This document shows, piece after piece, positions 34,625-59,010 of a DNA stretch of 64,000 nt. Source of the stretch: an uncultured Christensenella sp. GTDB taxonomy: Bacteria; Bacillota; Clostridia; Christensenellales; UBA1242. Both the position numbers and the translations under genes were made by a program. Location of the stretch: the NCBI GenBank assembly GCA_949290565.1, contig CASESH010000018.1:1585-65584 (forward strand), read 5' to 3'. How positions within the stretch are numbered: position 1 is the stretch's first letter; each line of letters opens with the position of its first letter. Under the pieces are notes generated by a model. That model worked only from the letters and a program-made list of their open reading frames with translations, made no database searches and was not told where the DNA came from.

Positions 34625-34794
34625 CTTAAATAAACTTAAATAATCTTAATAAAACTTAATAAAACTTAATAATACTTAATAATACTTAATAAAACTTAAC
34701 AAATCTTAGTAAAACTTAACAAATCTTAATAAATCTTAGTAAAACTTAACAAAAGTTAACAAAACTTAACAAAAGTTAACAAAACTTAACAAAA
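34625..34794 (+). repeat. 10-bp phased tandem array A (17 units; CTTAAYAAAW on + strand)
   Basis: Read directly: CTTAAATAAA CTTAAATAAT CTTAATAAAA x2 CTTAATAATA x2 ... CTTAACAAAA GTTAACAAAA alternating at the right end. The period is exactly 10 bp over 170 bp. It starts 24 nt beyond the rarA stop. Confidence 0.95.
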
Positions 34795-34818
34795 GTTTTA
34801 AAAAATTTTATACTTATA

Positions 34819-36102
34819 TTACTTAATCTTATCAAATTTTTTTCTTTTTAAAAATTTTTCTTTTCCATTTTGACTAGGAATATAATACACTTTATCTTTC
34901 AAAGTTTTTGGCAAATAATCTTGTTTGACATAACCTCCAAAGTCATGAGGGTACTTATACCCTGCTGTTTTATCATCATTTATAGAGGGATGATTTTTTA
35001 AGTTATTTGGTACATTATCATCTTTTGAATTCTCAATGTCATTCTTTGCTCTCTCCATTGCAAGATAAACTGAGTTTGATTTTTCAGCCTCACAGGCGTA
35101 AATAATCGCGTGAGAAAGAGTAAGTAAACATTCAGGCAAACCTAATTTTTCACAACTATATAGCGCACAACTACTAAGCAAAAGGGCATTGCTGTCTGCC
35201 ATTCCAATATCTTCACTGCTGTGAGCAATTAAACGCCTTGCTATAATTCTAGGGTCGCAACCTGCCTTAATTAATCTATTTGACCAATACAAAGCAGCAT
35301 CAGTATCACTTCCCCTTATGCTCTTACAAAATGCCGACAACATATCATAAAACATTGTTGAATCTAAACTATAACCACCCTCACCAATACTTTGGGTTGC
35401 CACCTCTTTATTAATGACAATTTGCTTATTTTTATCAAGATTAGTTGTGTTAACAGCAAGTTCCAAACCATTTAGCGCCTGTCTTACATCTCCTCCGCTA
35501 GCAAAAGCAAAATATTCATAAGCATCTTCTTCAACAACAACGGGCAAATTACCAAGTCCCCTTTCTTTATCACTGACAGCACGCTTTAAAACGCAAATAA
35601 TATCTTCTTTTGTTATAGGTTTAAATTCAAAAACTCTACACCTTGAAACAATAGCACGAGTCATACTAGTATAAGGATTTTCAGTCGTAGAACCTATGAA
35701 AATAATATGCCCTTCTTCGATGGCTTGCAAAATACAATCACTTTGCGCTTTACTCCATCTATGGCACTCATCTAAAAACAGGTAAGTTTTTTTATTAAAC
35801 AATTCAAAGTTCTTTTTTGCTTTATCAATAATCTCTCTTGCCTCATTAACCCCACTAGAAACGGCGTTCAATTTTTCAATCTCTCCGCTTGAAGTGTTTG
35901 CAATTATATGCGCTAAGGTAGTTTTGCCCGTTCCCGGTGGTCCATAAAAAATACAACTACCTAAGACTTGCGCCCTAATTGCCCTATCCAAAAGAGAATT
36001 TTTACTAACAATATGTTTTTGTCCAACAAACTCGTCTAAGGTAGTAGGCCTCATTCTTTCACTAAGAGGTTTTTTGTTATTAAACATTGAATAATATTCC
36101 AT
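34819..36102 (-). CDS. rarA: replication-associated recombination protein A (RarA/MgsA AAA+ ATPase)
   Basis: 427 aa. MRPTTLDEFVGQKHI, Walker A FYGPPGTGKTTLA, Walker B LFLDECHRW, and a C-terminal MgsA domain. Confidence 0.9.
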   Translation of the reverse strand: MEYYSMFNNKKPLSERMRPTTLDEFVGQKHIVSKNSLLDRAIRAQVLGSCIFYGPPGTGKTTLAHIIANTSSGEIEKLNAVSSGVNEAREIIDKAKKNFELFNKKTYLFLDECHRWSKAQSDCILQAIEEGHIIFIGSTTENPYTSMTRAIVSRCRVFEFKPITKEDIICVLKRAVSDKERGLGNLPVVVEEDAYEYFAFASGGDVRQALNGLELAVNTTNLDKNKQIVINKEVATQSIGEGGYSLDSTMFYDMLSAFCKSIRGSDTDAALYWSNRLIKAGCDPRIIARRLIAHSSEDIGMADSNALLLSSCALYSCEKLGLPECLLTLSHAIIYACEAEKSNSVYLAMERAKNDIENSKDDNVPNNLKNHPSINDDKTAGYKYPHDFGGYVKQDYLPKTLKDKVYYIPSQNGKEKFLKRKKFDKIK

Positions 36103-36510
36103 ACAAAAAATATATCACAAATTAATTTAATTGTAAACATTTGAATTTTTAAATAAAAAGATTAAAAGAGTAAACTCATATTTTTTAACTTTATTTTTAG
36201 AAATTACTAGCAACACATTTTTTAAAAAAAATTCAATTAATAACGTTTATTAAAATTTTAATACTTTAATTGATATTTAATAATCTAATAACTCAAAAAA
36301 TTTTAAATAGTTTAGTTATGTTTATAAGTTTCTTTCATATTTATATAAGTTTCATTCAAGTTGTTTAAAGTTTTTATTTTTTATTTCTTGATAAGTTTTT
36401 AAAAGTAAATTTATGTTTAATGCAAGATTTTTTTGTAAACTACAAAAATTTTTTTTAGGACTAGCAAATTTTGACAAATTTTTACATATATCTTACCAAG
36501 GAAGGTTTAT

Positions 36511-37212
36511 ATGATTGTTGAGAGTTTTATAGCATTTATGAATAAAATTATGCTCTTTTCTGCCTATGTGAACAACGCCTCTAATTTTCCAAAACCTCTA
36601 ACTCAGGAGCAAGAAAAAGCATATTTTGAAGCGTACAAAAAAGGAGATAAAAACGCAAAAGATAAACTCGTTTCTCACAATTTAAGGCTTGTAGTTCATG
36701 TTGCTAAAAAGTACTGTCAAACTGCCGAAAGCGATGACCTTATCAGTGTAGGTTCAATAGGACTTATTAAGGCGGTAAACACTTTTGACTACGATAAAAA
36801 TACTCAATTCTCAACTTACGCTGCAAGGTGCATAGAAAATGAAATACTTATGCTTCTTAGAGTTAATAAAAAACATATTCCCGTAATGTCGCTAAATGAA
36901 AGTTTAGGTAAAGACAAAGAAGGAAATGATGTGGCTATTCAAGATATTATTCCTGATGAAAACCAGAATGTTTCAGTCCAAGTAGAAAATCAAGTATTGA
37001 CTGAAAAACTTTTACAAATAATTAAGAAATCTCTTAGTCAAAGAGAATATGAAATTATGTGTATGAGATATGGCTTAAACAACAAACCCGTTTACACCCA
37101 AAGGGAAATTGCAAAAAAACTAAAAATTTCTCGTTCATACATAAGTAGATTAGAAAAGAAATCACTCGATATTTTAAGAGAGAAAACAAAAAAAGAAGAT
37201 GTTTATTACTAA
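36511..37212 (+). CDS. sigK: sporulation sigma factor, pro-sigma-K type (uninterrupted)
   Basis: 233 aa. Pro-sequence followed by YVNNASNFPKPLTQEQEKAYF, which resembles B. subtilis SigK YVKNNAFPQPLSSSEEKKYL. Also YAARCIENEILM, GKDKEGNDVAIQDI (SigK-like DKEGN) and TQREIAKKLKISRSYISRLEKKSL. SigE is the closest alternative. Confidence 0.75.
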   Translation: MIVESFIAFMNKIMLFSAYVNNASNFPKPLTQEQEKAYFEAYKKGDKNAKDKLVSHNLRLVVHVAKKYCQTAESDDLISVGSIGLIKAVNTFDYDKNTQFSTYAARCIENEILMLLRVNKKHIPVMSLNESLGKDKEGNDVAIQDIIPDENQNVSVQVENQVLTEKLLQIIKKSLSQREYEIMCMRYGLNNKPVYTQREIAKKLKISRSYISRLEKKSLDILREKTKKEDVYY

Positions 37213-37570
37213 GAGTTTTAGTAAAATAGAATGTATCATATTGCAAAAACAATTATTAAGTAGTAAAAAATAATTTTAATAAAAAAATAATAAAAAAGTT
37301 CGATAATAAATTTATAAAAAATGTATATAAATGCAATCATAAATTTTAAAAGTTCTAATAAAATCTAACATTATTTAGAAACAAAAAAATAAATAGAATT
37401 CTTAAAAAAAAGAATTTTAAATTTAAAAAAGTTGTAAAATCTCTAATAATTAAAAAAATAAAGCAGTTTATTGTTTTTTATATGATTTAAAAAGACATAA
37501 AAATAAAAAGTAAAAAATAAATCAATATTTACATACTTGACAAATTATAATAAAAACTTAAAATAAAGAC

Positions 37571-37918
37571 ATTAGGCAGACAGGTGGTCGCAGTCCAATT
37601 GTAGTGATTGGAGTGAGGAAAGTCCGAGCTTCATAGAACAGGGTGCTGAGTAACTCTCAGTGAAGGCGACTTTAAGGAAAGTGCAACAGAAATAAACAGC
37701 AAAGCAATGCTTTGCAATGGTGGAAAGGCGGAGTAAGAGCCCACCGACCGACTAGTGATAGTTGGTGCCATGTAAACCCCACCCGAAGCAAGATTAAAAA
37801 GAATCGTTATAAAGTTGTTCGCTAGATTCTTTAACAATATCGCTTGAACTATTTGGCAACAAATAGTCTAGATAGATGACCACCAAATACAGAACTCGGC
37901 TTATAGTTTGCACTAATC
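37571..37918 (+). ncRNA. rnpB: RNase P RNA (bacterial, ribozyme component)
   Basis: Universal P4 strands GAGGAAAGTCCG (approx 37615-37626) and ACAGAACTCGGCTTA (approx 37889-37903). P1 pairs ATTAGGCAGAC with GTTTGCACTAAT, and P2 pairs AGGTGGTC with GACCACC. A strong terminator follows. Track ORF 37631..37837 lies inside it and is spurious. Confidence 0.88.
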
Positions 37919-37957
37919 ATAACTACTTGCAAGTTGCAAGTAGTTATGTTTTTATTT
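37919..37957 (+). terminator. Rho-independent terminator of rnpB
   Basis: 13-bp perfect stem ATAACTACTTGCA-agt-TGCAAGTAGTTAT (37919-37947), followed by GTTTTTATTT. Confidence 0.8.
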
Positions 37958-38294: not shown

Positions 38295-40139
38295 CTAGAA
38301 TTTAGCAATCATAACGTTTAAGATAGGTTTTCTCTTTACTTTTCTACTAATGCAATTTGAAGCAAGTTTTCTAACCATGGCTTGTATTTCTTCGTCAGTG
38401 AAGTTTCTCAAATCTACATCTTTTAATTTATTAAAAATTGTTTCCTTAGCACTAGGAACGATTTTATCATATTCGTTCTCATATATAGAACCACGAGAAA
38501 CAATATCAGGTTTATCCATGATATTACCCGTTTCTAAGAGTATTTTAATAAGAATAATAACAAGTCCACTCTCACTTAAAGCCCTCCTATCTCTCATAAC
38601 CTGACAATCTGGAGTACCAACGCCCGTTCCATCTATCAAAACTGAACCGGCTTGAACAACCTTAGAAATTTTCATCATATTTTGGTTAAGTTCGACCTGC
38701 ATACCAATTTCAGGAATTATGATATTTCTTTCAGGCATACCAAGTTCGAGGGCAAGATTTTTATGATTTTTGAGGTGCCTATATTCCCCGTGAATAGGAA
38801 TAAAGAACTTAGGTTTAATGACTGAGTGAAGTATTTTAAGTTCTTCCTTATATGCGTGGCCTGAGGCGTGAACATCAGCAACTTGATTATAGATGATATT
38901 ACAATCTTTTCTATAAAGTTTGTTAATTAAATCGTTAATTTGAGTTTCATTGCCCGGAATAGGCGAAGAAGAAAGAATTACGACATCATTTTTACCGAGT
39001 TTGACCTTATTGAAAGCATCACTAGCAATTCTAGCAAGAGCACTTGCGCCCTCACCTTGTGAACCGGTAGAAATAATTACAAGATTTTTATCATCATAGT
39101 TTGCAATCTTATCAATATCAATAATTGCCTCTTTGTTACAAACAAGTTCGCCCGTTTTAAAAGCAATATCGCTAACGGTCAACATACTACGTCCGGTAAA
39201 AGCAACCTTACGATTATGCTTAATGGCAGTATTAATAATTTGTTGCAAACGATAAACATTAGAGGCAAAAGTTGCGATAATAATTCTCTCTTTTGTAAAC
39301 TTATCAAACAGTTCATCAAACGTTTTACCCACAACAGTTTCGCTAAGAGAAAAGCCTTCCCTTTCGACATTTGTACTTTCACACAAGAGCAAATCTACGC
39401 CCTTTTTACCAATTTCGGCAAGTCTTTTCATATCACAAACATTATTTTTAATGTTAAAATCAATTTTAAAATCGCCCGTATGAACAACGACTCCGGCAGG
39501 AGTGTTAATTACATAGGCGCACGCACCGGGAATTGAGTGAGTGATTGAAACATTCTCAACTACAAATTTCCCAGCATAAACAGTTGTGTTAGGTTTAATA
39601 GGTTTTAATAAAGCGCTAAGTTTACCTTGATTGTCTCTAAGTTTCTTATCAACAAGTCCAAGAGTAATAGGAGTACCATAAATAGGAGCGTTGACAATTT
39701 GTAATACATTTGCAATGCAACCAATATGGTCCTCGTGGCCGTGAGTAATAAAAATTGCCCTAAGTTTAGACTTTTTTTGTTCAAGATAAGTTAAGTCTTG
39801 AATAACCTTATCAATTCCCGGCAAACTCTCATCACCAAAAGCGTGCCCAGCATCTACCATAATCATATCGTCGCCATATTCAAATAAGGTCATATTTTTA
39901 CCAATCTCATCAATACCACCCAAGAAAGTAACTTTAAGATTATAATAACCGTGTTCTTTTCTATGTTTATGCTCTACCTCAAAATCATTATTTGACTTTG
40001 AAGTTTTAGGGAATTTTTTAACACCTTTATTCAAATTAGAATTTTTTAAAGAGTTTATATTTTGATTTTTATAATAAAATTTAGTTTGATTTTTATTGTT
40101 TTTTACTTGAAAAACTTGTTTAGTTTGATTTAATTCCAT
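38295..40139 (-). CDS. rnj: ribonuclease J (metallo-beta-lactamase/beta-CASP)
   Basis: ITHGHEDHIG, GDFK and HASGHA motifs. Start set to ATG at 40139 (MELNQTK), preceded by AAGGAG 6 nt upstream; the track start is at 40175. An approx 60-aa N/K-rich extension precedes the conserved LKVTFLGGIDEIGKN. Confidence 0.92.
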   Translation of the reverse strand: MELNQTKQVFQVKNNKNQTKFYYKNQNINSLKNSNLNKGVKKFPKTSKSNNDFEVEHKHRKEHGYYNLKVTFLGGIDEIGKNMTLFEYGDDMIMVDAGHAFGDESLPGIDKVIQDLTYLEQKKSKLRAIFITHGHEDHIGCIANVLQIVNAPIYGTPITLGLVDKKLRDNQGKLSALLKPIKPNTTVYAGKFVVENVSITHSIPGACAYVINTPAGVVVHTGDFKIDFNIKNNVCDMKRLAEIGKKGVDLLLCESTNVEREGFSLSETVVGKTFDELFDKFTKERIIIATFASNVYRLQQIINTAIKHNRKVAFTGRSMLTVSDIAFKTGELVCNKEAIIDIDKIANYDDKNLVIISTGSQGEGASALARIASDAFNKVKLGKNDVVILSSSPIPGNETQINDLINKLYRKDCNIIYNQVADVHASGHAYKEELKILHSVIKPKFFIPIHGEYRHLKNHKNLALELGMPERNIIIPEIGMQVELNQNMMKISKVVQAGSVLIDGTGVGTPDCQVMRDRRALSESGLVIILIKILLETGNIMDKPDIVSRGSIYENEYDKIVPSAKETIFNKLKDVDLRNFTDEEIQAMVRKLASNCISRKVKRKPILNVMIAKF

Positions 40140-40840
40140 TTTTTCTCCTTGCAAAATAAGTATTAAAGTACACAAAAAGATTAGTTAAAACTCAATTGAA
40201 CCATAATCTAAAAACAAATTAAAGCCACAAAAAAGCATAAATATAATTAAGTTCTAAATTAATTTAAAAAATAGTTTTTATTGATAAATTTAACTAGTTT
40301 AAATATAAAAAAAGAAAGTAAATTAATTAAAACTATTAAATTCGCCAATTAGTGCATAGTATTTTATATTTTGTATGATAAAAGAAAACTTATATCTATT
40401 CCCTATTCATTAAAATAAAGGAAATAATATAAAAATATAAGATTAACTAACTCAAAATATAATCTAAAATTTTTTAAGCACTAAAAAAGAAACTAAATAA
40501 CATAGTCCTCTTTAATCACTTAAAATTTACTCATTAGTTAAAAACTAACCTCTCTAAAAAGTAAGATACCAAAAAATATCATACAAGTCAACAATTTTTT
40601 TGTTCTTTCATAAAAATTAAAGTCAAAATAAAACAACAAAATAGAGGCCACTAATTCAGTTAAAAATTTTACTTAACTATTGCAAATTAAAAAATTTATT
40701 ATAAAATGTTTTTTTTAAATCTAACTATTATTAAAGATTAAGAAAAGTTTATATAAGTTTACAAAAAATAATAAACACACTTTAAATTATTTTTATTAGA
40801 CAAAATAGTATTTAAAAGTTATCTTTATTTAATTAATCGA

Positions 40841-41785
40841 CTAAATAATGTATTTTATCTTGTTTATCTCATCTCTTTCCTCAAATGTTTTAGGAATAAC
40901 AACGTAATCTGGATAAACATAAAATCTCATACCATGACAACTGAAAAAACTGACAAGTCCAAAAATACTAAAAGTAAAAGCCGTTAAGGGTAAAGTAACT
41001 AAAAGAGAAAGAGTAAATGAAAAAACGCAGAAAATAAAATTGACAACAAAAGCGAGTAAAACAAGTAATGTGCTGGTCGAAAAGATACTCCCAAACTTTT
41101 TAAAAATACTTTTAAAATTTGTCTTAATTGAAACAAGAGGATTTTCGTTATAAACAGTAACTGCTGGCAACCAGCACGAAAAGAAAGAATATTTTAAAGC
41201 AACAAAGACAAGCAGAACTCCCAGCACGCAAATTGCTAACAAAAAGTATAAGAAGGAACCGAGCGAAACAAGTCTAATCATTAAATAAATTAATAGCAAA
41301 GTTATTGCGTTGACAGGCAAAAGTACAAAAAATCTAACAAGACTATATAGAGCACTCTTACCCAAATACTTTACAAATTTAACTGTAAAACTGTACTTTG
41401 ACTGACTTGTCATATAGCCATAAACAACTTCATTCATTGGAAGAAGTGCAAGATTAATTAGAAATGGAAAAACAAACAAAATATAAATTGCTAGAAAAAC
41501 AATATTAACATTTAGTTGAGGATTTGAGTTCAATACTGACCAAAAGTTTTCATTAACCTGCTCTATTGAAATGGCAGTTGCGTCTGGCTTTGCAAAAAAG
41601 ATATTGTCTAAAATAGCAAAAAAATCATTAAAAACATTTGCTTGATTTAGTTTATCTATTATTGGTAATGCAATAACAGTACAAACAGCAAGACTTAACA
41701 AAATACAAATAACATAATATAAAAGAACTTTCCAAACATTAGAAAAATTAGAAACAAGTAATCTAAAAGTATTTCTAAAAATCAT
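40841..41785 (-). CDS. polytopic membrane protein, unknown function
   Basis: 314 aa with at least 6 hydrophobic segments (for example VLLYYVICILLSLAVCTVIALPI and LLVLLAFVVNFIFCVFSFTLSLLVTLPL). No family assigned. Confidence 0.6.
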   Translation of the reverse strand: MIFRNTFRLLVSNFSNVWKVLLYYVICILLSLAVCTVIALPIIDKLNQANVFNDFFAILDNIFFAKPDATAISIEQVNENFWSVLNSNPQLNVNIVFLAIYILFVFPFLINLALLPMNEVVYGYMTSQSKYSFTVKFVKYLGKSALYSLVRFFVLLPVNAITLLLIYLMIRLVSLGSFLYFLLAICVLGVLLVFVALKYSFFSCWLPAVTVYNENPLVSIKTNFKSIFKKFGSIFSTSTLLVLLAFVVNFIFCVFSFTLSLLVTLPLTAFTFSIFGLVSFFSCHGMRFYVYPDYVVIPKTFEERDEINKIKYII

Positions 41786-42231
41786 TTACAATCTAACCTT
41801 TTAAAAATAAAAAATGTATTAAACAAAATAGAATTAGTAAACTTAATAATTCAAAATTATGTGCAAAAAACTCTCAACTCAAATTTTAATTAAAAATTTA
41901 ATAAGAAAATAAATAACACATATTTTGTATTTTATAGTATATAATTTAAACGCAAATAAATCAACTTATTTAAAATAAAATTTATTAATAAAAATGGTGT
42001 AACAAACTAAAAACTTAAAAATACTTACATATAAAGTTTTTAGTTAAAAAAATTTAACAATAAAAAGTTTTAAATTAGTTACTAAAAAACAATAAAAATT
42101 TAATAAAATAAATTATCATAAAATAATACGAAGTTAAATAAAATAATTTAATTTAAAAAAAGATTAGATTAACCTTGTTTGTATTTAACAAAGTTAATAA
42201 AGAAAAATATTTATAATTCACTAATTTAGAT

Positions 42232-42261
42232 AAAAAAAGAGAGGGCTAAAAATTCCCTCTC
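42232..42261 (-). terminator. Rho-independent terminator closing the phage-like operon
   Basis: GAGAGGG-ctaaaaatt-CCCTCTC (42239-42261). On the minus strand it is followed by T7. It begins 9 nt after the stop at 42270. Confidence 0.75.
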
Positions 42262-42269
42262 AAAAAAAT

Positions 42270-42815
42270 TTAATCATTTTTTTTATTTAACTCTTTATTT
42301 ATTTCATCAGCAATTTCATTGCTAGATATTTTTGATTTAGATTTATATTTTAACACGCCAAGTCCAACAAGAATAGAAAGCACGACAGCACAAACATCAA
42401 CAATTATGTTAACACATAAATCAACTCCAAATGACAAGCAAATTGCCTGAGTAATGGCAAGAACTGAACAAATAATTGTAATCCAAAAAGAAAGAGAATT
42501 TACTTTGTTTTTTTCTTCGATGCCTAAATCGTTTGTAATAGAATTAGAAGAATCATCATTTTCATTCATATAAGTAGTATTTGCAATTTCACTACCATAA
42601 CTTTTTGGTACTAAACGAGAAGCCGTTTTTATATTTGTCTGAACACAAGTTGTGTTGTTTAAATTATTGTTTTGATTTTGATTTATCAAAGAATTGGAAC
42701 TGTCGCTAAAATTATTAAAATTAATTTCACTTCCGTCTTCTTGCAAATTATTTAAGGAATTATCAATTATATTAGATGAAATATTATAAGAGTTATCAAG
42801 GCTATTTTTACTCAA
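42270..42815 (-). CDS. membrane protein with an N/S-rich N-terminus and two C-terminal TM helices (holin-partner-like)
   Basis: 181 aa. TTG start overlaps the TGA stop of the BhlA-like gene (ATTGA). TM segments FWITIICSVLAITQAICLSFG and IIVDVCAVVLSILVGLGVL. The function is inferred from context only. Confidence 0.55.
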   Translation of the reverse strand: MSKNSLDNSYNISSNIIDNSLNNLQEDGSEINFNNFSDSSNSLINQNQNNNLNNTTCVQTNIKTASRLVPKSYGSEIANTTYMNENDDSSNSITNDLGIEEKNKVNSLSFWITIICSVLAITQAICLSFGVDLCVNIIVDVCAVVLSILVGLGVLKYKSKSKISSNEIADEINKELNKKND

Positions 42816-43033
42816 TTTTCTCTATCTCCCTTTTTAAGTAGTGTAGAGCGAATCTCTTTTAGTTCTTGCTTAATATCTTCGACAGTATCTAAATGCTGAT
42901 TTAATTTAGAAATAGTATCTTGATATTTTTTTTCTCTCTTAGCACTATCTTTTAACTGATAGACAAGCAAAGAAACAAACAGCACAGCCCAAGCCCCATT
43001 TGTAACTGCTTGGTTAAAAACTTCTTCCCACAT
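42812..43033 (-). CDS. BhlA/UviB-family holin-like protein
   Basis: 73 aa. One N-terminal TM followed by a charged coiled tail. NGAWAVLFVSLLVYQLKDSAKREKKY parallels the BhlA pattern G.FAVLF..LL.Y..K.S..RE.K. RBS not obvious. Confidence 0.6.
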   Translation of the reverse strand: MWEEVFNQAVTNGAWAVLFVSLLVYQLKDSAKREKKYQDTISKLNQHLDTVEDIKQELKEIRSTLLKKGDREN

Positions 43034-43311
43034 AAAATTTAATTAACTGTTTAGAATTTTTTTAAAACCTTCTTTAATTTTTTTTTCATAAATCTTCTTT
43101 TTTTTCATAAACCCTCTACATAATTAAAACAAGACAAAGTTATAATTAATAAATTAGATTTAAAAAATACCATTAAGGCACAAGATAAAAACTAGAAAGA
43201 GTAAAACAAATTAAATAAGAAAAATGTTAAGATAAATCTAGTAAAAAAACTAAAAATTTATATAACTTTGTCTTAAAAAAAGTTAATTTTTTTCACATTT
43301 TAAAATAAAGT

Positions 43312-44778
43312 TTATTTTGGTTGTTTAAAATTAAACTGCAACAAAGTAATGTCAAAATCTTCCAAACTAGAAGTAATATCATATCTAAAAATCGTACCTG
43401 AAATATTAACTCTAATTTTACGCAAATTAGGACTTTCTGGAATCTTGTATGTTCGAACTTTGTCATCAAAATGAATAGTCAAATCAAATTCTTTGTTGCA
43501 AATGACTTCTATATCTTTAAGAATGTTCTTTTGAGTAAAGTTGTCAAATAATAAGTTAGGACTTTCAAACTTTTTGTCAAGTACCGAAGAACCAACTTTA
43601 CCCGTATCATTTAAAACCCATAATTTGTTGCTATTATTTAAAGCAATAACTAAACGTTTGTAAAAAAGATAGTTTACTGAAACCATAGAAACAATATCAA
43701 CGCCATATAAAATATTATACTCTTGTGTTGCTAAATCAAATTCAACAAGCGCGTTATTTGAACTTAAAACTTCATCATTAAAACCAATTTTGCAAGCAAT
43801 GTAAAGTTTATTATCGTGGTAGCAGGTGTTGGCTTGTTCTTGGTCATACTCGGCAAGTTTTTCACAAATTGAACTGTCAACTTTTTTAACATCATAGCCA
43901 TCAAAAGAATAAAGTCCATCTTGTTGTAAAAAATATATTTTTTCTCCACAAATACAAACGCTATCACAATAAATCTTTTGACCTGCGTCATAAATATTGC
44001 TAGTTGTAAAATCACTTTTTAAATAAGTATTAATCTTGCTAATTCCAAAATCTCTAAACACATAAACGTTGTCTAGAAATGAAATCAAGTTTTTTAATTC
44101 GCCCTTATAATCGTTTAATTCTAACATTCCGGCGTCTTCACTTTCGGTAGTGTTCTTTAACCAATCAAGAGGGTTACAGTTGGCGCTGTACCTAACAATA
44201 TAATCCCACTTGGTATCAATAGCAAACAATCTATCATTATGAAAACACACACTTTTAAAACTAGGCGCAGTATCAACTGTGATAGGGTCCTCATCGCAAA
44301 ACCATACAAGCAAGTTATCGCTCTTTGATGAAAAGCCCATAACATCATCACCACTAATTCTAAAATTAATACCAATAGGAGACTCGTTAAAAGTATGATT
44401 AATGCAATAGTAGTCATCATTTAGAAAGAAAAGAGGAGTATAGTAAACTTTTTTATCCTGACAAATGACGACTAAAAAATAAAGAAAAGTTTGGTTATCG
44501 TGACTAAAACATCTATATCTAAAAATTTTTTTAACATTACTAGGAATTGGGTTGCGAGTTACGAAAGTAGAAGGACTAGAATGTAAAGTACTAATTGGAA
44601 TAGTAATTTCCTCTAAACCATTACCCAAGACTAACCTACCTTCCCTAGATTTAAGGTTATAGCAAACGCTAGGATTAACATAGTTGTTATTATAGGCTTT
44701 CTTTTTAGCAAGAGAAGTGGAAAAATTGTCAATAAAAAATTTCAGATTGCCAAAATCATTTTCATCAAAATAATTCAT
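43312..44778 (-). CDS. phage-associated structural protein of unknown type (possible tail/adsorption component)
   Basis: 488 aa from the ATG at 44778 (RBS AGAGGTGG). It is translationally coupled to the upstream gene (TAATG). Beta-rich, non-repetitive sequence. The role is guessed from its position after the head genes. Confidence 0.55.
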   Translation of the reverse strand: MNYFDENDFGNLKFFIDNFSTSLAKKKAYNNNYVNPSVCYNLKSREGRLVLGNGLEEITIPISTLHSSPSTFVTRNPIPSNVKKIFRYRCFSHDNQTFLYFLVVICQDKKVYYTPLFFLNDDYYCINHTFNESPIGINFRISGDDVMGFSSKSDNLLVWFCDEDPITVDTAPSFKSVCFHNDRLFAIDTKWDYIVRYSANCNPLDWLKNTTESEDAGMLELNDYKGELKNLISFLDNVYVFRDFGISKINTYLKSDFTTSNIYDAGQKIYCDSVCICGEKIYFLQQDGLYSFDGYDVKKVDSSICEKLAEYDQEQANTCYHDNKLYIACKIGFNDEVLSSNNALVEFDLATQEYNILYGVDIVSMVSVNYLFYKRLVIALNNSNKLWVLNDTGKVGSSVLDKKFESPNLLFDNFTQKNILKDIEVICNKEFDLTIHFDDKVRTYKIPESPNLRKIRVNISGTIFRYDITSSLEDFDITLLQFNFKQPK

Positions 44779-45338: not shown

Positions 45339-45381
45339 AATACTTCTCCTTTTAAGAAAAGACTAGATAAAGGGGCAAAAG

Positions 45382-48340: not shown

Positions 48341-48342
48341 TT

Positions 48343-50255: not shown

Positions 50256-50585
50256 CTAATTTGATTGCTCACTTAAAATTTTAATCAGTCTATTTTTTTC
50301 AGTCAACAACTCCTCATCACTAAAATTAGAGTAATCGCAACAATCAGATGACGAAGAATTATTCATTTCACACAAAATTTTAATAGAATTAATATCAGGT
50401 GCGTGTTTTCTAGTAGTAATCTTTTGAGATTTAAGAGTTTTGTTCCCCTCTTTGTCGCAAACGAATTCTTCCACGCACTCACTAGTAGTGTAACCCTTTG
50501 CTAAATAGGAAAGCGAATCAAACAAAAAACTTTCCTGCCCGGGCAAAACATTTTTACAATCTTGATTATTTTTTTTTCTACCCAT
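50256..50585 (-). CDS. hypothetical protein, weak resemblance to the C-terminal half of XtmA-type small terminase subunits
   Basis: 109 aa from the internal ATG (MGRKKNNQD...). KITTRKHAPDINSIKILCEM resembles the ..LPPDv.A.kfwL.. segment of TerS, and FSDEELLTEKNRLIKIL is also TerS-like. No N-terminal HTH is seen, and it is located after terL rather than before it. Confidence 0.3.
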   Translation of the reverse strand: MGRKKNNQDCKNVLPGQESFLFDSLSYLAKGYTTSECVEEFVCDKEGNKTLKSQKITTRKHAPDINSIKILCEMNNSSSSDCCDYSNFSDEELLTEKNRLIKILSEQSN

Positions 50586-50941
50586 ATTGAAAATCCCAAA
50601 AAAAGTTTTAATGTAGTCAAAGCAAGAAACAAAAAAGTTTACAAGCAAATGACTTAAATATTTTTAAAAGTTTTAGCCTAACAAACATATCACAATTAAA
50701 ATTTTGTTAAAGTCTTTTTAATTGTCAGTTTTGTTTAGTAAAACAAATAGAAATTAAAGTAATTTAGATATTTATAATAAAATATTTTTGCAAAAATATA
50801 AAAAATTAAAAATTCTTATATAAAACATTAACAACTATTTTTAATAAAGGCGTAATTTATTTATTGTTAAAGTTTTATTTATAAAGTCGTACAACTTATT
50901 TAGAAACAAAAATTATCGCTAAATTTTGTTTAATTTAAACT

Positions 50942-52465
50942 TTATCTATATAATCTTTTTTTACGCATAAGTTCTTTTGCAACTTTGTCCTTATGTTTTT
51001 CAAGGTAAGTTTTAGGTCTAGCGTGAGGACTAGGTTTTGTCATAAGATAATATCTAAGTTCATCAAGGCAGTGGTCATCTTTTTTGACAGGCGTGTCGCC
51101 ACTCGACCAAAAATATGTTTTAAATTCTCTAATTAGATTAGTACAACAAGAAAAAATAAACAATCTAGCACGACCATTTGAATTTTTAATGTAAGACTTA
51201 ACCTGAGCAATTCCGGAAAACAAATCTTTATTTACTTTTGTATTCACAGCAATTCCCCTTTCATAAAATAGTTCGGCAACGCTTTTAACACCATTCAAAG
51301 TTCTTTGCCCGGCAGCGCTGTCAATAAGCGCCTCGTAATAACCCATATTGTTAGTGGGCCAATTTAAACTTTTACAAATGTTTTTTATTTTTTCAGCGTG
51401 ATAGTCAATGTCCTTACCTGCCTCAAAGTGCTCTTTTATAACATAAACATTTCCATCATAGTCAACGCAATACCAATGGCAAGCAAGAGGATTATTTAGT
51501 CCTGGGTCAATAGAAATTCCATCGTACCAATCGCTTGGAACATTAAACGGTTGAATAACATTAACTCTGTCGTCAAACTCTTTATAAACAAGTCCTTGGC
51601 TACCCGAAAACCTTCCATACTTTCTGGCATCGAGGTCATCAGTTGAGAGAGAGTTTTCAAAGAATTCAATCTCCTTCTCATCAAGGAAAGGGTTGTCGTT
51701 CCAATCCATTTGAATAAACCAAACCTCAGGGTTGTTTTTTTGATTTAAGAAAATCTCATCATAAACCCAACTCAAACCTTTTAAAGGAGTCATAGTACCA
51801 AAGAGTTCCCCCTTTTTATCAAGAACTCTCATTCGACATTCGAGATAAATGTCGTAACTAGGCTCCTCGTCAAACCAAACAAAATCTAAACTAGTTCCCT
51901 GGAATTTTTCACGACCTTGGTCGCAACTTTTAAACCCTATTGTGCTAGTCGAACCAAAAACATTTTTAATAAGGATATAATCAATAATACCATTTTCTGG
52001 GCTGTCTTTTTTACCTGAAAGCATAACAATTTCCTCAATCCAAAGAGGATTTAGATATTGCAAAATTTTTTTTTGAGCAACATCTCTTTGGACCTGTTTT
52101 GAAAGACTAACTACCCAGCCACTAACCGGGCCCTTATTATTTCTAAAAGGATGAATTCCCCTTGCTAAAAAAATAACCTCAACAGCACCACATTCAGTCT
52201 TGCCCGTTCTGTTGCCACCAAAAACCCACCTATTACGTTTTAAGCACTTGTGGAACTCCATTTGCTTTAAATGAACTTTTTCACCTGTATTGTAAGAAGC
52301 AAGTTTGTCAAAACGCTTTCTACTTTCGATTTCGCCATCAATTAAACCTAATTCCAAAACAGTTTTATAAAAAGAAGAACCGTTTTTTAAACCAAAAGCC
52401 GACTTACGATATCTTTTTTCAACTTCCAAAGCCACCAAAGTCAGCCTAGCAACTTCATCTCTCAT
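50942..52465 (-). CDS. terL: phage terminase large subunit
   Basis: Approx 507 aa from the ATG at 52465 (RBS AAAGGTGG). Walker A-like GGNRTGKTECGA, Walker B DFVWFDEEP, and the C-terminal nuclease motif DDHCLDELRY. Confidence 0.85.
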   Translation of the reverse strand: MRDEVARLTLVALEVEKRYRKSAFGLKNGSSFYKTVLELGLIDGEIESRKRFDKLASYNTGEKVHLKQMEFHKCLKRNRWVFGGNRTGKTECGAVEVIFLARGIHPFRNNKGPVSGWVVSLSKQVQRDVAQKKILQYLNPLWIEEIVMLSGKKDSPENGIIDYILIKNVFGSTSTIGFKSCDQGREKFQGTSLDFVWFDEEPSYDIYLECRMRVLDKKGELFGTMTPLKGLSWVYDEIFLNQKNNPEVWFIQMDWNDNPFLDEKEIEFFENSLSTDDLDARKYGRFSGSQGLVYKEFDDRVNVIQPFNVPSDWYDGISIDPGLNNPLACHWYCVDYDGNVYVIKEHFEAGKDIDYHAEKIKNICKSLNWPTNNMGYYEALIDSAAGQRTLNGVKSVAELFYERGIAVNTKVNKDLFSGIAQVKSYIKNSNGRARLFIFSCCTNLIREFKTYFWSSGDTPVKKDDHCLDELRYYLMTKPSPHARPKTYLEKHKDKVAKELMRKKRLYR

Positions 52466-52900
52466 TAAAACCACCTTTTCGACAAAAGAAGTATATTTTG
52501 CTAAAAATAGAAAAGTTAAAATAAACTATCAAAAGAAAATAATTACTAAAATACAAAAACATAAAATAAATTCTTTCTCTAAAATTAAAAACAAATTTTT
52601 AAACAAATTCTTAATCTCTATTAAATTTATTTAAACACAACTTTTTAAAACAATTAAATGACTAAAACACCTATAAATGTAAACAATTATAATAAAAGCC
52701 AATTTGCAAAAACACAAATCGACTTTTTGTAACTTTCAAAACTTTAATATTAAGAACTTTATTATTAAAATACTTAAAAATTAAAATGATTAAATTAGAT
52801 TAACAATAACTCAAAATCATTATGTTAAATGTAATAAATAAATTTGTATATTATATAAAAAATAGATTTACAAAACACAAATAAATTTTATTATTTAAAA

Positions 52901-53000
52901 AGTTTTATTAAGTTTATTTAACTTTTGTTAAGTTTTGTTAAGTTTAATAAAGTTATATTAGGTTTTGTTAACTTTTGTTAAGTTTTGTTAAGTATTTTAT
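52901..53000 (-). repeat. 10-bp phased tandem array C (10 units; AGTTTTGTTA type on + strand)
   Basis: Read directly: AGTTTTATTA AGTTTATTTA ACTTTTGTTA AGTTTTGTTA AGTTTAATAA AGTTATATTA GGTTTTGTTA ACTTTTGTTA AGTTTTGTTA AGTATTTTAT. It ends 5 nt before the AGGAGG RBS of the + strand gene. Confidence 0.9.
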
Positions 53001-53016
53001 TTTACAGGAGGTCAAA

Positions 53017-53808
53017 TTGAAAAAATTTTTACCAATCTTAATTGTCTTTTCGCTCATTTGCCTATTTATTGATACAAATTCGGTCAAGGCAAAATACACT
53101 AACTATGTTTATGCCAGAGTGCAAACAAGCGGAGTTTACTTATACAAATCGACCAATCCAACTCCCCAAAATTCATATTTTGAAATCCCGGCAACATATT
53201 TTGTATTACTCCTTTCCAACTATGACGCAAACTTTTACAAAGCACAATATAGAGATTATGTAGGCTATGTTCTTAAAAAAGAAGTAACGCCTGTTAACGA
53301 AACTCCACAAACTCCATTTTTAGAGACTCAAACATTTAGAGTTTACTCATCGGACGGAACAGGAATAAAATCAAGCCCGTTTGATAATGGAATAGTAATA
53401 GGTCAAGTAAAAGAACTAGAAGAAATAAACTATTATGGAAGCATAATAGGTCGAGAAGAAATAGACAAGCGAGGTAGTGTATGGGCATATGGCAAGACAT
53501 CAAATGGACAAGCAGGTTATTTTTATTGCGGTCTAATTGATGGACTAGAAAACATACCAATAAACACTGAAAGCACTACAATACTAGAAAATCCGTTTGA
53601 GGAAAATTCAAGCGACTACCTATACAACCTAGTTGATATAACTCCAATAGTAAAAATACTTATCATAGGACTAGTAACTATTCCGGCGATAGCAATATTA
53701 TGGCTAATATTTTTACCGAATACAAAACGACTTAAACCTAAGGGGATAAAAGTTAGTAAACCCCAAACTATTAAACAAATACAAGATTATAATGATGACT
53801 TATTATAA
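53017..53808 (+). CDS. secreted, C-terminally membrane-anchored protein with two SH3b-like repeats
   Basis: Start corrected to TTG at 53017 (AGGAGG at 53006-53011, 5-nt spacer); the track start at 52975 lies inside array C. Signal peptide KKFLPILIVFSLICLFIDTNSVKA. Two segments ending in ..FYKAQYRDYVGYVLKKEV and ..SNGQAGYFYCGLI resemble SH3b. C-terminal TM ILIIGLVTIPAIAILWLIFL. It is one of only two protein-coding genes (with sigK) and three features (with rnpB) on the + strand. Confidence 0.7.
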   Translation: MKKFLPILIVFSLICLFIDTNSVKAKYTNYVYARVQTSGVYLYKSTNPTPQNSYFEIPATYFVLLLSNYDANFYKAQYRDYVGYVLKKEVTPVNETPQTPFLETQTFRVYSSDGTGIKSSPFDNGIVIGQVKELEEINYYGSIIGREEIDKRGSVWAYGKTSNGQAGYFYCGLIDGLENIPINTESTTILENPFEENSSDYLYNLVDITPIVKILIIGLVTIPAIAILWLIFLPNTKRLKPKGIKVSKPQTIKQIQDYNDDLL

Positions 53809-53990
53809 TAAGATAAATCTTAGCCTTAAAAAATAATAAATTTTAGTAAATTTTACGGTTTTATATTAAGAAGTTTTTAATTAGAAATAAAATATATAAG
53901 TCAAATATAAAATTTATACTCTATATTAATTATTTATATTTATAAGTTGAATAAAAATAATTTATTAATTATCTAGGCTAAAAAATATTA

Positions 53991-54150
53991 AGTTTTATTA
54001 AGTTTTGTTAACTTTATTTAACTTTTGTTAAGTTTTTTTAACTTTTGTTAAGTTTTTTTAACTTTTGTTAAGTTTTGTTAAGTTTCGTTAAGTTTTGTTA
54101 ATTTTATTAAGTTTTGTTAAGTTTTGTTAAGTTTTGTTAAGTTTAATAAA
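53991..54150 (-). repeat. 10-bp phased tandem array D (16 units; AGTTTTGTTA type on + strand)
   Basis: Read directly. It includes a 20-bp doublet ACTTTTGTTAAGTTTTTTTA x2 (54021-54060). There is a single 9-bp unit near 54101, after which the register shifts by one. Confidence 0.92.
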
Positions 54151-54828
54151 CTTTTTTTAATAATTATTTTATAACTTTACTATAAATAGTTAAAGTAAAA
54201 ACAAATTAAGTAAAAGGAAACTAGCAAAATATAATTTCTTTTAATCATAATAATAAAGAATGTTAAAATTAAAAAATTCCAACAAACAAATAAAAACAAA
54301 ATAAATATTAACTAAAATATTTTTAGAAAACATATAAATTGTTTTATTTTTAGTACTAAAATAAGTAAGAATTAGCACTAAAAAAATCTAAATTACTTTA
54401 TACCCTTTTTTAAACTTATGATTGAATAATATAAAAGAAATTAAAGATAAAATAATTTCTTTGATATAAATTGAACAATTCCAAAACAATTTAGAAAAAC
54501 TACAAATAAATTTATAAGAATTAATGAAATCAACAATTTGTAAATTTTAAATACCAAATATAAATATATTAAAACAACCTAAACAAGCAACAAAATAAGA
54601 AAATAACTTATGAGAAATTAAAGTGTTGAGGATTAATTAATCAAAAGAAAGTAATAAAAAACAAATAAATAAAAATAAAAAACTAAAAAATTTGCTTAAT
54701 TAAGTATTAATAATAAAAATATAAAAAGTAATTTAAAAAGAAATAAAAGCAAGTGAACAAATCATTATAAAAACAAATTGATAAAAATTAATACTTATAA
54801 AAATAGTAATTCATAATAAAAAAATGAA

Positions 54829-55464
54829 TTAATTGAACTTTCTAAGTTTGTTAATAATAAGACCGCACAAATAATCTCTATCATTTTTGAGCAGTCTTCC
54901 CTCGCTGTCATCAACACAAGCCCTATTAACCCTCTGCAAAATGTCGCTAAGAAAATTATCGCTGAAAACCTTTTGAGAGTTAGAGCAATTAGAGAGATTT
55001 TTAGAAAGTACTCTTTGGAAACGTTCGAGAGCAATCATAAGTTTTCTAAAAAAGGTTCTACGGTCCATATTAAAGAGAGCCGGGCAACTGCTAGAAGGAA
55101 TATTGTCAACATACCTAGCCATTAAGAGTTGAACGTAGTCAGATTTAAGTTCGGCGAGAGATTTATCGACAATACATTTAAAATTAAGTAAGTTGATTTT
55201 TTGCTGTTCAAGAAGAATAATCCCATCTGCTAAATCATAAAGAGTAAGACTCGAAGGCAAAATCATAGAATTAGAAGCCCTTGAAAGAACAAGTTTATCA
55301 ATCGACTTAACCAAGTTAGGAACACAAGAATAAACCGAAAGAAAGGAACGACTCCAAGTTCTCAAAGCCTTCTTGTCAAAATTGTTAGGATTAAAATCAT
55401 TCATAAGGAATTGAGTTGAGTCAACAGCAAAATCATCACTTATATTTAAAAAATCAAATTTCAT
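54829..55464 (-). CDS. hypothetical protein, possible sigma-70 region-4-like / phage late-gene regulator
   Basis: 211 aa with a strong RBS (GGAGG 5 nt upstream). LSELKSDYVQLLMARYVDNIPSSSCPALFNMDRRTFFRKLMIALERF has the spacing of a sigma region-4 / DUF1492-type HTH. Weak, by eye only. Track ORF 54795..55034 overlaps out of frame and is spurious. Confidence 0.55.
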   Translation of the reverse strand: MKFDFLNISDDFAVDSTQFLMNDFNPNNFDKKALRTWSRSFLSVYSCVPNLVKSIDKLVLSRASNSMILPSSLTLYDLADGIILLEQQKINLLNFKCIVDKSLAELKSDYVQLLMARYVDNIPSSSCPALFNMDRRTFFRKLMIALERFQRVLSKNLSNCSNSQKVFSDNFLSDILQRVNRACVDDSEGRLLKNDRDYLCGLIINKLRKFN

Positions 55465-56579: not shown

Positions 56580-57236
56580 TTAAGCGAGTTTATCTTGCTC
56601 GACATTTAAAGAATTGATATTATCATCAAGCATACAAATTTTGTTGATAGAAATTTCGTAAGCGACTCTTGTTTCTACGCAGTCGTCATCTAACTTTTTT
56701 TGGTACTCCCTACTTTGAATACGACCTATAATACTAACTTTTTGACCGACAACAAAATTTTTTAAATATCTAGCATTTCTACCCCAAGCGATAGCAGGTA
56801 AATAATCTGACTTATTGTAAGACCTATTTACAGCAATAAGAACATCACAAATTTCACGACCGAAAGGCGTAGTTCTAAAAACGGGCTCTTTGCAAATAAA
56901 GCCACTAATTTCGACAAGATTTGGGTTCATAGAATAGTCAATCTCGACAACACTTCTAACAAAAACATTGAGAATAAGTTTACTTTTTCCATCTACAAAC
57001 TTGTTGTAACTTCTAAACTGACCCTGAACGGCCACAAGATTACCCACGACAAAAGAGTTATCGAGCAACTTTTCGCTAATAATGACAGGAATAGTGTCAA
57101 AATTATTAGACAATCTTTCGATATTAATAAAAACCTCATAGAAGCCTTCGCCAAAAGATTCGTGGCTAAAAACGGGCGCAGAAGCAACAGTACCTCTTAA
57201 AAAAACTTTGTTATTTTCCATCAATTCGTAATTCAT
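56580..57236 (-). CDS. tandem-OB-fold single-stranded DNA-binding-like protein
   Basis: 218 aa with RBS AAGGGAGA. Two SSB/PriB-like OB repeats: NKVFLRGTVASAPVF..VAVQGQFRSYN and NLVEISGFICKEPVFRTTPFGREICDVLIAVNRS..LPAIAWGRNARYL..VGQKVSIIGRIQSREYQ. No acidic C-terminal tip. Confidence 0.7.
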   Translation of the reverse strand: MNYELMENNKVFLRGTVASAPVFSHESFGEGFYEVFINIERLSNNFDTIPVIISEKLLDNSFVVGNLVAVQGQFRSYNKFVDGKSKLILNVFVRSVVEIDYSMNPNLVEISGFICKEPVFRTTPFGREICDVLIAVNRSYNKSDYLPAIAWGRNARYLKNFVVGQKVSIIGRIQSREYQKKLDDDCVETRVAYEISINKICMLDDNINSLNVEQDKLA

Positions 57237-57320
57237 TTTTTTCTCCCTTAAATTTAAAATAAAACGGACAAACGCCTAAACTTACAAACCCAACTAACAA
57301 GAAGATAAATAAACAAAAAC

Positions 57321-57410
57321 CTTATAAAACAGTCTAAAACTTAATAAATCTTAATTAAACTTAATAAAATAGTCTAAAACTTATTAAAACTTAATAAAAG
57401 TTAAGTAAAA
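57321..57410 (+). repeat. 10-bp phased tandem array E (9 units; CTTAATAAAA on + strand, with TAGTCTAAAA variant)
   Basis: Read directly: CTTATAAAA CAGTCTAAAA CTTAATAAAT CTTAATTAAA CTTAATAAAA TAGTCTAAAA CTTATTAAAA CTTAATAAAA GTTAAGTAAAA. Confidence 0.88.
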
Positions 57411-57533
57411 ATTTATTAAATTATTATATTTAATTAATCAAAATTAAAAAGTTCTAGCATAATAAAGTTAAAAAATAGATATAAGTCTTATTAAAAATTA
57501 GTTTAAAATACATTATAAACAAACAATTTAATA

Positions 57534-58319
57534 CTACTTAGCAATTTGTTTACCCGTATGGTCAATATAAAAATCAGATTTTAAAAGCAAATCGCTAATT
57601 TTAACAAATTCAAAGCCTCTACTTTTTAAAGTGGTAAGCACGCTAGGCAAATAGTCTAAAACATAATCAGCATTATTGTGGCACAAGATAATTGAACCCG
57701 AACCAACCTTAGTAATAATATTGCTAATAACTTTTTCAGACGAGATATTTTTCCAATCGCAAGAGTCAACATTCCATTGAACAGTTTGCAAATTAAGACT
57801 TTCAGCAGTAGAAATAACATTGTTGTTATAAGCGCCAAAAGGAGCACGGAATAAAGTAACAGGCTGATTAGTAATTCTTTGAATTTTTTCCATAGAAGTT
57901 TCAAGTTCTAGTTGAATTTGAGAAGTTGAGAGTTTAGTCAAATCAGGGTGAGTATTACTATGAGTACCAATTTCCATACCATAATTAAAAATAGTTCTAG
58001 TAAGTTCGGGGTATTTGTCAACCCAGATACCAACCAAGAAGAAAGTGGCCTTAACATCAAATTGTTCCAAAATTTTTAAGATGCCCTCAGTTTTATCGGC
58101 GCCCCAAGAAGCATCAAAAGAAATGGCAATTTGATTGCTAGAATTGTCAACACAGTAAACAGGAAGTTTTCTATTTGAGTTAGACAAAAATACACTAGCA
58201 AGAGGAGCCTCTCCACCGAGCGAAGAACAAAGAAGAATAAGTACCAAAGTTAGAAGAACAACTAACTTAATGGTCTTGCTAGAAAAACTTAAAAAAACTA
58301 TCTTACCCTGCCTTTTCAT
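57534..58319 (-). CDS. polysaccharide deacetylase (NodB/CE4), PdaB-like
   Basis: N-terminal TM/signal sequence, then ISFDASWG (the PdaB-type FD.SWG in place of TFDDG), GTHSNTHPD and LFRAPFG. Start set to ATG at 58319; the track uses TTG at 58331. Confidence 0.85.
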   Translation of the reverse strand: MKRQGKIVFLSFSSKTIKLVVLLTLVLILLCSSLGGEAPLASVFLSNSNRKLPVYCVDNSSNQIAISFDASWGADKTEGILKILEQFDVKATFFLVGIWVDKYPELTRTIFNYGMEIGTHSNTHPDLTKLSTSQIQLELETSMEKIQRITNQPVTLFRAPFGAYNNNVISTAESLNLQTVQWNVDSCDWKNISSEKVISNIITKVGSGSIILCHNNADYVLDYLPSVLTTLKSRGFEFVKISDLLLKSDFYIDHTGKQIAK

Positions 58320-58740
58320 AATACACCCCAAGCGAATAAAAATTTTGACAACAAATGTAGCAAAAAGACTAAAAAACTGAGAAATAAAAATTAAAATAAA
58401 TAAATAATTTGTTTAAAAGAGATTAAAAATTAAGAATATCTTAAATCTTAAAATATTAAATTAAAACAAATCAAACAAGCATTAAAAAAACTAATAAATA
58501 TATGTAAAATTAAAAAAGAAAAAGAATTAAATAAAAAATTTTTTAGAATATTTTGCTAACATTTATTCAAAAAATTACAAGACAAATTTTTAAAAATAAG
58601 TCTTAATAAAAGATATTCAGTTATAATTAAAAAAATGAGTATGACAAGAAAATAAATATAAAATCAAATGTAAAAATATAAGTAAACTAATTAATTATAA
58701 ACTTAAATTAAACAATAATTAGATAAATAAAAAAGAAAAA

Positions 58741-58761
58741 AGATAGACAAAATTTCTATCT
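58741..58761. terminator. bidirectional-looking hairpin terminator beyond array F
   Basis: AGATAGA-caaaatt-TCTATCT, followed by T-runs on both strands (TTTTTCT on +, TTTTTCTTTTTT on -). On the minus strand it comes after parC and array F. Confidence 0.5.
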
Positions 58762-58820
58762 TTTTCTAACATATTGCATAAAAATAAAATTAAATAACAC
58801 TAAAACTTGACTAGCAAAAA

Positions 58821-59010
58821 CTTAATAAAACTTAATAAAAGTTAATAAAACTTAATAAAACATAAATAAACTTAATAAAACTTAAATAAACTTAATAAAA
58901 CATATTAAAACTTAACAAAATAGTCCAAAACTTAAATAAACTTAATAATTCTTAAAAAAAGTTAATAAAATAGTCTAAAACTTAATTAATCTTAATAAAA
59001 CTTAACAAAA
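58821..59010 (+). repeat. 10-bp phased tandem array F (19 units; CTTAATAAAA on + strand)
   Basis: Read directly. Every 10-nt print block from 58821 to 59010 is one unit (CTTAATAAAA x8, GTTAATAAAA x2, TAGTCCAAAA, TAGTCTAAAA, and others). It ends 34 nt from the parC stop (59045). Confidence 0.95.

Follow-up and report, generated by a model that had tools for sequence, protein, structure and literature searches.

Six arrays of a 10-bp repeat around a phage-like gene cluster in an uncultured Christensenella species: probable lineage-specific minisatellites

The mycobacterial interspersed repetitive units (MIRUs) are a dispersed minisatellite family with units of 40-100 bp, set in one orientation relative to transcription and overlapping stop and start codons. 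Phased A-tracts give rise to curved DNA, as in kinetoplast-type bends and the curved regions upstream of Clostridium and Bacillus promoters, whilst direct repeats of 4-10 units form the centromere or iteron arrays of R1 (parC/ParR), pSK41 (parC), pSM19035 (omega heptads) and the tubC/TubR systems. In Caenorhabditis elegans, the Helitron-derived, 10-bp-periodic minisatellites of the periodic A/T clusters (PATC) have been proposed to be mechanical insulators (bioRxiv 10.64898/2026.08.08.743475). Here, we describe six arrays of a 10-bp, almost pure A/T repeat in a 64-kb stretch of DNA from an uncultured Christensenella sp. (contig CASESH010000018.1), referred to below as the window, where they are grouped around a phage-like gene cluster. 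We read them as a young, lineage-specific and slippage-driven family of minisatellites, or variable number tandem repeats (VNTRs), in expanded AT-rich spacers, and put the probability of this reading at roughly 60%.

Six arrays of a single repeat unit

The window contains six head-to-tail arrays of period 10 (A to F; about 98 units), all of which are intergenic. A logo of the 98 units gave the consensus STTAAYAAAA, in which positions 1 (C/G) and 6 (T/C/A) vary and the other eight are 88-98% conserved across all arrays; position 1 is G or C in 93% of units, while the spacers are only 16-17% GC. Scanning with the two-unit motif CTTAAYAAAACTTAAYAAAA at up to 3 mismatches returned 76 matches against 1.01 expected, a number reached in none of 100 shuffles, and 75 of the 76 fall inside the six arrays. 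The 10-bp register is strict throughout, its sole break being a 1-bp slip in array D near position 54102, and Tandem Repeats Finder reported indels of only 0-4% in the period-10 arrays, giving the uninterrupted head-to-tail copies that characterize a VNTR. Arrays A, E and F read CTTAAYAAAA on the + strand; the other three (B, C and D) do so on the - strand.

Array A (34622-34794, + strand; 17.3 copies and 0% indels by Tandem Repeats Finder, corresponding to about 17-18 units of CTTAAYAAAA) begins 25 bp past the MgsA stop codon (34819) and lies approximately 360 bp upstream of the GDPD start (34260). Array B (48073-48342, - strand; about 25 units, degenerate from near 48073, with 24.8 copies and 0% indels called at 48095-48342) abuts the stop codon of the portal gene (48343) and ends 55 bp before the start of a 164-aa open reading frame (ORF; 48018). 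The divergent spacer between TerL (start 52474) and an ORF for a 277-aa membrane protein (probable TTG start 53018) holds array C (52894-52993, - strand; 10 units, 9.4 copies called at 52900-52993). Array D (53983-54161, - strand; about 16-18 units, 15.8 copies called at 53988-54144) consists of two blocks offset by the 1-bp slip and lies between convergent gene ends (53808 and 54829). Array E (57316-57426, + strand), located between the stop codon of a polysaccharide deacetylase (57534) and the SSB start (57236), includes TAGTCTAAAA variants; we count 9 units, Tandem Repeats Finder calls about 7.5 copies at 57335-57410, and its rows of period 20 and 40 start at 57316. Array F (58817-59010, + strand; 19 units, 19.4 copies) begins 35 bp past the stop codon of a ParC/GyrA-like gene (59045), approximately 490 bp upstream of the deacetylase start. 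The distance from a stop codon to the start of the array is thus 25, 0 and 35 bp for A, B and F, and that from the end of the array to a start codon is 55, 25 and 80 bp for B, C and E.

Neither Tandem Repeats Finder nor the motif scan detected an array at 1-34000 or 59011-64000 of the window, and the units are contiguous, with none of the unique spacers of a clustered regularly interspaced short palindromic repeat (CRISPR) locus. On all these points the original prediction, which had been made from the letters of the sequence, was borne out: its six coordinates and unit counts agree with ours within one or two units, the 10-bp phase is real apart from the slip in D, the first 34 kb is free of such arrays, and the arrays are non-coding on the gene map and are not CRISPR. 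It had also matched the unit and its distribution to no described element, and a literal search of the searchable literature found no paper containing the unit sequence.

Rare 15-mers, defined as those that the four common units cannot generate, are shared between arrays (10 for A-B, 11 for C-D, 10 for E-F, 13 for B-F and 8 for A-F), so the arrays are related by descent through multi-unit blocks and are not independent inventions. The rare TAGTCTAAAA variant is common to E and F, similarity is highest between adjacent units, and repeats of a higher order, 20, 40 and 50 bp long, are present. The arrays, therefore, constitute a dispersed family in which one unit occupies six intergenic loci. Isolated units outside the arrays are not enriched (9 found, 7.1 expected), which argues that the unit is not a dispersed binding site.

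Copy number, distribution and a proposed slippage model

Short-read metagenome assemblies are error-prone at tandem repeats, and contigs often break there, which could suggest that the arrays are an assembly artefact. However, at least four samples yielded independent ENA and Logan assemblies with arrays at the identical six sites and with the same order of variants wherever assemblies overlap, and we conclude that the arrays are not artefactual; the contrary is scarcely credible. Exact-protein look-ups traced the window species to these metagenome assemblies, and the names attached to homologues of its ParC, RecA and MgsA point to Clostridia / Christensenellales.

Contigs of the window species from other samples, 99.7-99.96% identical outside the arrays, allowed copy number to be compared between close strains. 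Within the arrays, these assemblies differ in steps of 10 bp: array B shows +10 and about +210 bp, C +30 bp and F about +90 bp, and D and E differ as well. Array A has 18 units both in the window and in the one other assembly covering it, an identical copy in ENA scaffold_1854. Array B has 25 units in the window; elsewhere it has 25 (ERZ16268169; L071) or 47 (ERZ16268163 scaffold_1854; L070). Array C, with 10 units in the window, has 13 in L070, which carries three additional units as an exact insertion of 30 bp, and at least 15 in L076, where the contig ends. Array D has 18 units in the window, L074 and L076, and about 10 with a different mix of variants in L078, a more divergent strain (approximately 0.8% from the window); array E has 9 in the window, L074, L076 and L077, and at least 15 in L079; and the 19 units of array F compare with 28 in L074 and at least 21 in L076. 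Many short-read contigs terminate within arrays, and the longer array versions hold variant orders missing from the shorter ones. Copy-number differences of whole units between close strains, as expected of a VNTR, are thus seen for B to F in short-read assemblies. The original prediction had likened the arrays to protein-binding ones and had named free copy-number variation between near-identical strains as one of three outcomes that together would make them plain slippage minisatellites; such variation is what we found.

The closest relative found is a sister species (L065), the ParC of which is 59% identical to that of the window. Its gene order is the same, running from ParE and ParC through the deacetylase, SSB, regulator, membrane protein, TerL, small ORF, portal and 164-aa ORF to the capsid gene, with protein identities of 59-82%, and no lineage-specific gene separates the two species from ParE to the capsid gene. 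L065 has no period-10 array: its spacers are similar in length (290 bp for the counterpart of the 325-bp array B spacer) and simply AT-rich. Relative L085 (ParC 48% identical) has a phage-like cluster at the same site, with short spacers and no arrays, and relatives L067 and L069 have neither cluster nor arrays. Because L065 and the other relatives are array-free, the arrays arose after the split from L065, and the orthologous sites, as is usual for VNTRs, are not conserved in related species.

Scans of IMG/VR, 185,579 GTDB species genomes and JGI metagenomes with patterns of 3 or 4 units yielded no locus with several arrays, only isolated single ones, mostly of 3-13 units, in unrelated taxa such as giant-virus contigs, Roseburia and Bacillus. 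Two of these matches (L014 and L022) were considered as kin of the window arrays and rejected, since their neighbouring genes have nothing in common; we regard the collection matches as independent simple repeats. The L014 match, at 1273-1402 in a metagenome-assembled genome of Roseburia hominis, is a degenerate 13-unit array of period 10 that shares the core (AATCTTAACA) and lies upstream of a gene for an AAA-ATPase, and its presence in an unrelated Clostridia genome indicates that similar units can expand independently elsewhere. A portal-based search of IMG/VR for related clusters found only relatives of at most 37% identity, which have no long period-10 arrays. As far as the data reach, the arrays are confined to the window species.

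The window species and L065 have a coding density of 78-79%, spacers of 16-17% GC and a median spacer of approximately 280 bp. When the window, L065 and L083 were compared with the more distant L069 and L085, the latter proved to be 92-93% coding, from which it follows that intergenic DNA has expanded in this clade. The sister lineage has a different dispersed intergenic repeat of about 105 nt (L065 at 1592-1690, 6217-6315, ~15130-15235, 16093-16202 and 17582-17691; L086 at 2724-2833), which the window species lacks, a BLAST search of the window with it having found no copy. This repeat is made up of a closing stem and three internal hairpins followed by a U-run (RNA fold -47.7 kcal/mol, z = -9.2), has no match in Rfam and often directly follows stop codons; it may be a terminator-like repeat or one resembling a miniature inverted-repeat transposable element (MITE). 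A correspondence between its sites and those of the arrays was rejected as chance, with 2 of 9 syntenic spacers shared against 1.7 expected.

All six arrays lie within 24.4 kb of the approximately 85 kb examined (range test on uniform positions, p ~0.009), and amongst spacers of at least 150 bp they span 15 consecutive of 33 (p ~0.04). Past its right end, the window is continued by a 17-kb scaffold of this species (carrying FtsK, RecA and GH95 genes), and neither this scaffold nor short extensions on both sides contain an array. A uniform density across intergenic regions, also named in advance as evidence against a specific role, was therefore not what we observed. The clustering is suggestive, and local spread would account for it no less well than would a link to the phage-like cluster.

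The variable copy number and the array-free sister species lead us to favour young, unstable minisatellites over a conserved protein-binding or packaging device. In the model that we propose, arrays would grow and shrink in whole 10-bp units by slipped-strand mispairing and unequal recombination, and new arrays would be seeded in nearby spacers when multi-unit blocks are copied by ectopic recombination or template switching. Such local copying of blocks would explain both the shared rare variants and the clustering within 24 kb. Several observations weigh against this model. Every strain covering any of the six sites has an array there, the one that is about 0.8% divergent included; the arrays are unevenly spread and grouped around the phage-like cluster; and their predicted curvature exceeds the background. 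The eight conserved positions and the G or C at position 1, maintained despite fast turnover, could reflect constraint as well as youth. In addition, the assemblies behind the copy numbers were built from short reads, so that tandem repeats in them may be collapsed or expanded, and the sequence examined amounts to only about 85 kb of the genome.

As minisatellites, the arrays would be useful as strain markers for this uncultured lineage, and would be a practical cause of contig breaks in metagenome assemblies. Together with the hairpin repeat of the sister lineage, they show that lineage-specific repeat families are quickly acquired in a clade whose AT-rich spacers have expanded.

The gene neighbourhood and the phage-like cluster

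The gene map of the window was built with Pfam and PHROGs, and Rfam identified the RNase P RNA (37572-37920) and nothing else. The - strand encodes nearly all genes. Read from low to high positions, the arrays are accompanied by genes for GDPD (33526-34260), MgsA (34819-36102), a sigma factor (36511-37212, + strand) and RNase J (38295-40175), by the phage-like cluster (40841-55464), and by genes for SSB (56580-57236), the polysaccharide deacetylase (57534-58331) and the 1222-aa ParC/GyrA-like protein (59045-62713, - strand). Arrays B, C and D are inside the cluster, and A, E and F flank ordinary host genes: RNase J, RNase P RNA, the sigma factor and MgsA separate A from the cluster, and SSB and the deacetylase separate it from E and F. 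The original claim that every array lies in or next to a phage-like island therefore stands for B, C and D, and for the confinement of all six to 24.4 kb, but not for the three set apart by host genes.

The cluster comprises, again from low to high, a 314-aa ORF, two holins, ORFs of 491, 186 and 119 aa, the major head protein (45771-46937), ORFs of 85 and 164 aa, array B, a P22-like portal (48343-49920), a 130-aa ORF, TerL (50942-52474), array C, the 277-aa membrane-protein ORF (+ strand), array D and a 211-aa ORF resembling sigma/RinA-like regulators (54829-55464; weak PHROG match). Neither integrase nor tail genes were recognized in it. A cluster is present at the same chromosomal site, following ParE, ParC, the deacetylase and SSB, in L065 (16664-23810) and L085 (8894-15537), relatives with ParC identities of just 59 and 48%. 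Its TerL, portal and capsid proteins are 78-82% identical to those of the sister species, whereas none of 50,697 phage records matches the window TerL at more than 31% identity. The cluster looks vertically inherited and is a candidate gene transfer agent (GTA) or domesticated prophage; packaging of the GTA type is reported from gut Clostridia, Christensenellaceae among them (PMC12946183). That phage-derived genes for head, packaging and lysis have stayed at a single chromosomal site through deep divergence may be more notable biology than the arrays themselves.

The ParC/GyrA-like protein carries an acidic, low-complexity N-terminal extension of about 430 aa, rich in Asp, Glu, Asn and Ser, ahead of its topoisomerase domain (61400-62713, - strand). 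The extension is common to the L065 and L085 orthologues and is not found in more distant homologues of 1038-1052 aa. Strain-variable indels also occur outside the arrays: a 33-bp insertion in a period-13 repeat downstream of the RNase P RNA (38090), and indels of 15-20 bp in the spacer adjoining the 314-aa ORF (40803-40838).

Alternative readings and described systems

The original prediction expected strongly curved DNA, and the arrays do have the layout of phased A-tracts, with AAAA at unit positions 7-10 and a period of 10.0 bp. According to our own implementation of three dinucleotide wedge models, they are bent by approximately 8-16 degrees per turn, and their end-to-end shortening places them among the top 1-10% of windows of equal length. 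Bending above the background is predicted, and the arrays are far straighter than an (A6N4)n control and fall below several non-repeat spots. The modelled twist of 344-354 degrees per unit predicts a shallow superhelix and not a planar circle. For two non-repeat AT-rich stretches, 3394-3640 and 34403-34640, the predicted curvature is stronger than in any array; the second lies upstream of the GDPD gene's near-consensus promoter of the extended -10 type (34465-34438, - strand). No structure was found by single-strand folding of the arrays (z-scores -0.7 to +2.4), promoter-like matches in the window did not exceed the shuffled expectation, and a terminator scan found no hairpins in or adjoining the arrays. 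Under the slippage model, the moderate bend and gentle superhelicity would be a by-product of having one A4 tract per 10 bp. Bent arrays could alter local transcription or the binding of nucleoid proteins, but would appear to lack a selected function.

A mechanical role is nevertheless a possibility, if an unlikely one. Bent superhelical arrays might act as UP-element-like enhancers, nucleoid-protein traps or topological barriers, with copy number as a rheostat, and the predicted shortening and superhelix agree with this, as do the positions of arrays B, C and E, ending 25-80 bp from start codons, and of A, B and F, beginning 0-35 bp after stops. A eukaryotic precedent is found in 10-bp-periodic minisatellites that are reported to be mechanical insulators (bioRxiv 10.64898/2026.08.08.743475). 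On the other hand, the curvature is modest, being surpassed in the two non-repeat stretches; a period of 10.0 bp does not keep phase with a helical repeat of about 10.5 bp; the arrays lack terminator hairpins and any excess of promoter-like matches; the sister species runs the same operons without arrays; and the position relative to promoters is inconsistent, ranging from 25 to about 490 bp. A more specific proposal, which we think improbable, is that these phased A-tract minisatellites trap supercoils or wrap a nucleoid protein and so insulate or tune transcription units within and beside a GTA-like, vertically inherited capsid cluster, 10-bp slippage providing a heritable rheostat, as a prokaryotic counterpart of the C. 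elegans PATC insulators. Were copy number to affect transcription or topology, the arrays would be a rare bacterial case of regulation by DNA mechanics. Distinctly unlikely, in our view, is the proposal that the arrays wrap an oligomeric DNA-binding protein, such as a ParR-, omega- or TubR-type centromere protein, a TerS-type packaging protein or a regulator of the cluster, and so organize segregation, packaging or repression of the cluster and its neighbours. Direct repeats of 10 bp are long enough for cooperative binding, TTAA and AAAA are conserved while positions 1 and 6 vary, the arrays are grouped around the cluster and occur in all strains seen, and the cluster encodes the sigma/RinA-like ORF with its weak match to a PHROG family of transcriptional regulators. 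Yet the homologous clusters of L065 and L085 have the same genes and no arrays, and Pfam and PHROGs scans of the flanking ORFs revealed no ParA, ParM, TubZ, ParR or recognizable TerS. Moreover, three arrays flank host genes, orientation is mixed, copy number ranges about two-fold among near-identical strains and single units are not enriched elsewhere.

We consider it very improbable that the arrays are internal minisatellites of a mobile element (a MITE, or a repeat borne by a Helitron or insertion sequence) inserted at six sites. One unit family at several loci in both orientations, rare variants shared between arrays and the dispersed 105-nt hairpin element in similar spacers of the sister lineage would fit such an origin. 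However, comparison of the flanks found no conserved non-array sequence, terminal inverted repeats or target-site duplications, no transposase was present amongst the scanned ORFs of the window, and the array B spacer is nearly as long as its array-free counterpart. An essential role for the phage-like cluster, as a pac site, centromere or origin, is unlikely because homologous clusters are array-free, partner genes are lacking, and copy number and orientation vary; the iteron, centromere or pac role envisaged by the original prediction is unsupported on the same grounds. A modulatory role through DNA mechanics or nucleoid-protein binding may exist, and the conserved TTAA and AAAA, the G or C at position 1, the fixation of all six sites and the clustering are points in its favour.

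How the arrays relate to described systems follows from these observations. Like centromere and iteron arrays, they are short direct repeats, and omega heptads too occur at several sites and in both orientations; but the window arrays have 9-47 units and are hypervariable, lie on the chromosome beside housekeeping genes, have no partition NTPase or adaptor gene amongst the flanking ORFs scanned with Pfam and PHROGs, and are missing from the homologous clusters of relatives, whereas a centromere is conserved with its element. Nor do they resemble a pac site read by TerS, since no TerS was recognized, three arrays occupy host spacers, and the packaging modules of L065, 78-79% identical, are array-free. 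With phased A-tract curved DNA they have in common one A4 run per helical turn, approximately, over 90-250 bp and a predicted bend above the background, and they differ from it in having 4 As, an exact 10.0-bp period with a predicted shallow superhelix, a bend far below that of (A6N4)n and no consistent position relative to promoters. The C. elegans PATC share the 10-bp-periodic minisatellite and intrinsic curvature, and are proposed to act mechanically and not via a short protein-binding motif; they are eukaryotic, chromatin-based and transposon-derived, whereas the window arrays are known from sequence, making the likeness an analogy only. The arrays depart from MIRUs in their unit, which is 10 bp and almost pure A/T instead of 40-100 bp, and in occurring in both orientations, and from VNTR and MIRU-type families in general in being confined to 24 kb with a unit close to one helical turn. 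As in those families, they consist of head-to-tail units without spacers in intergenic positions, some within operon-like rows of genes, and form a single unit family spread over several loci, which related species do not conserve and at which close strains differ by whole units.

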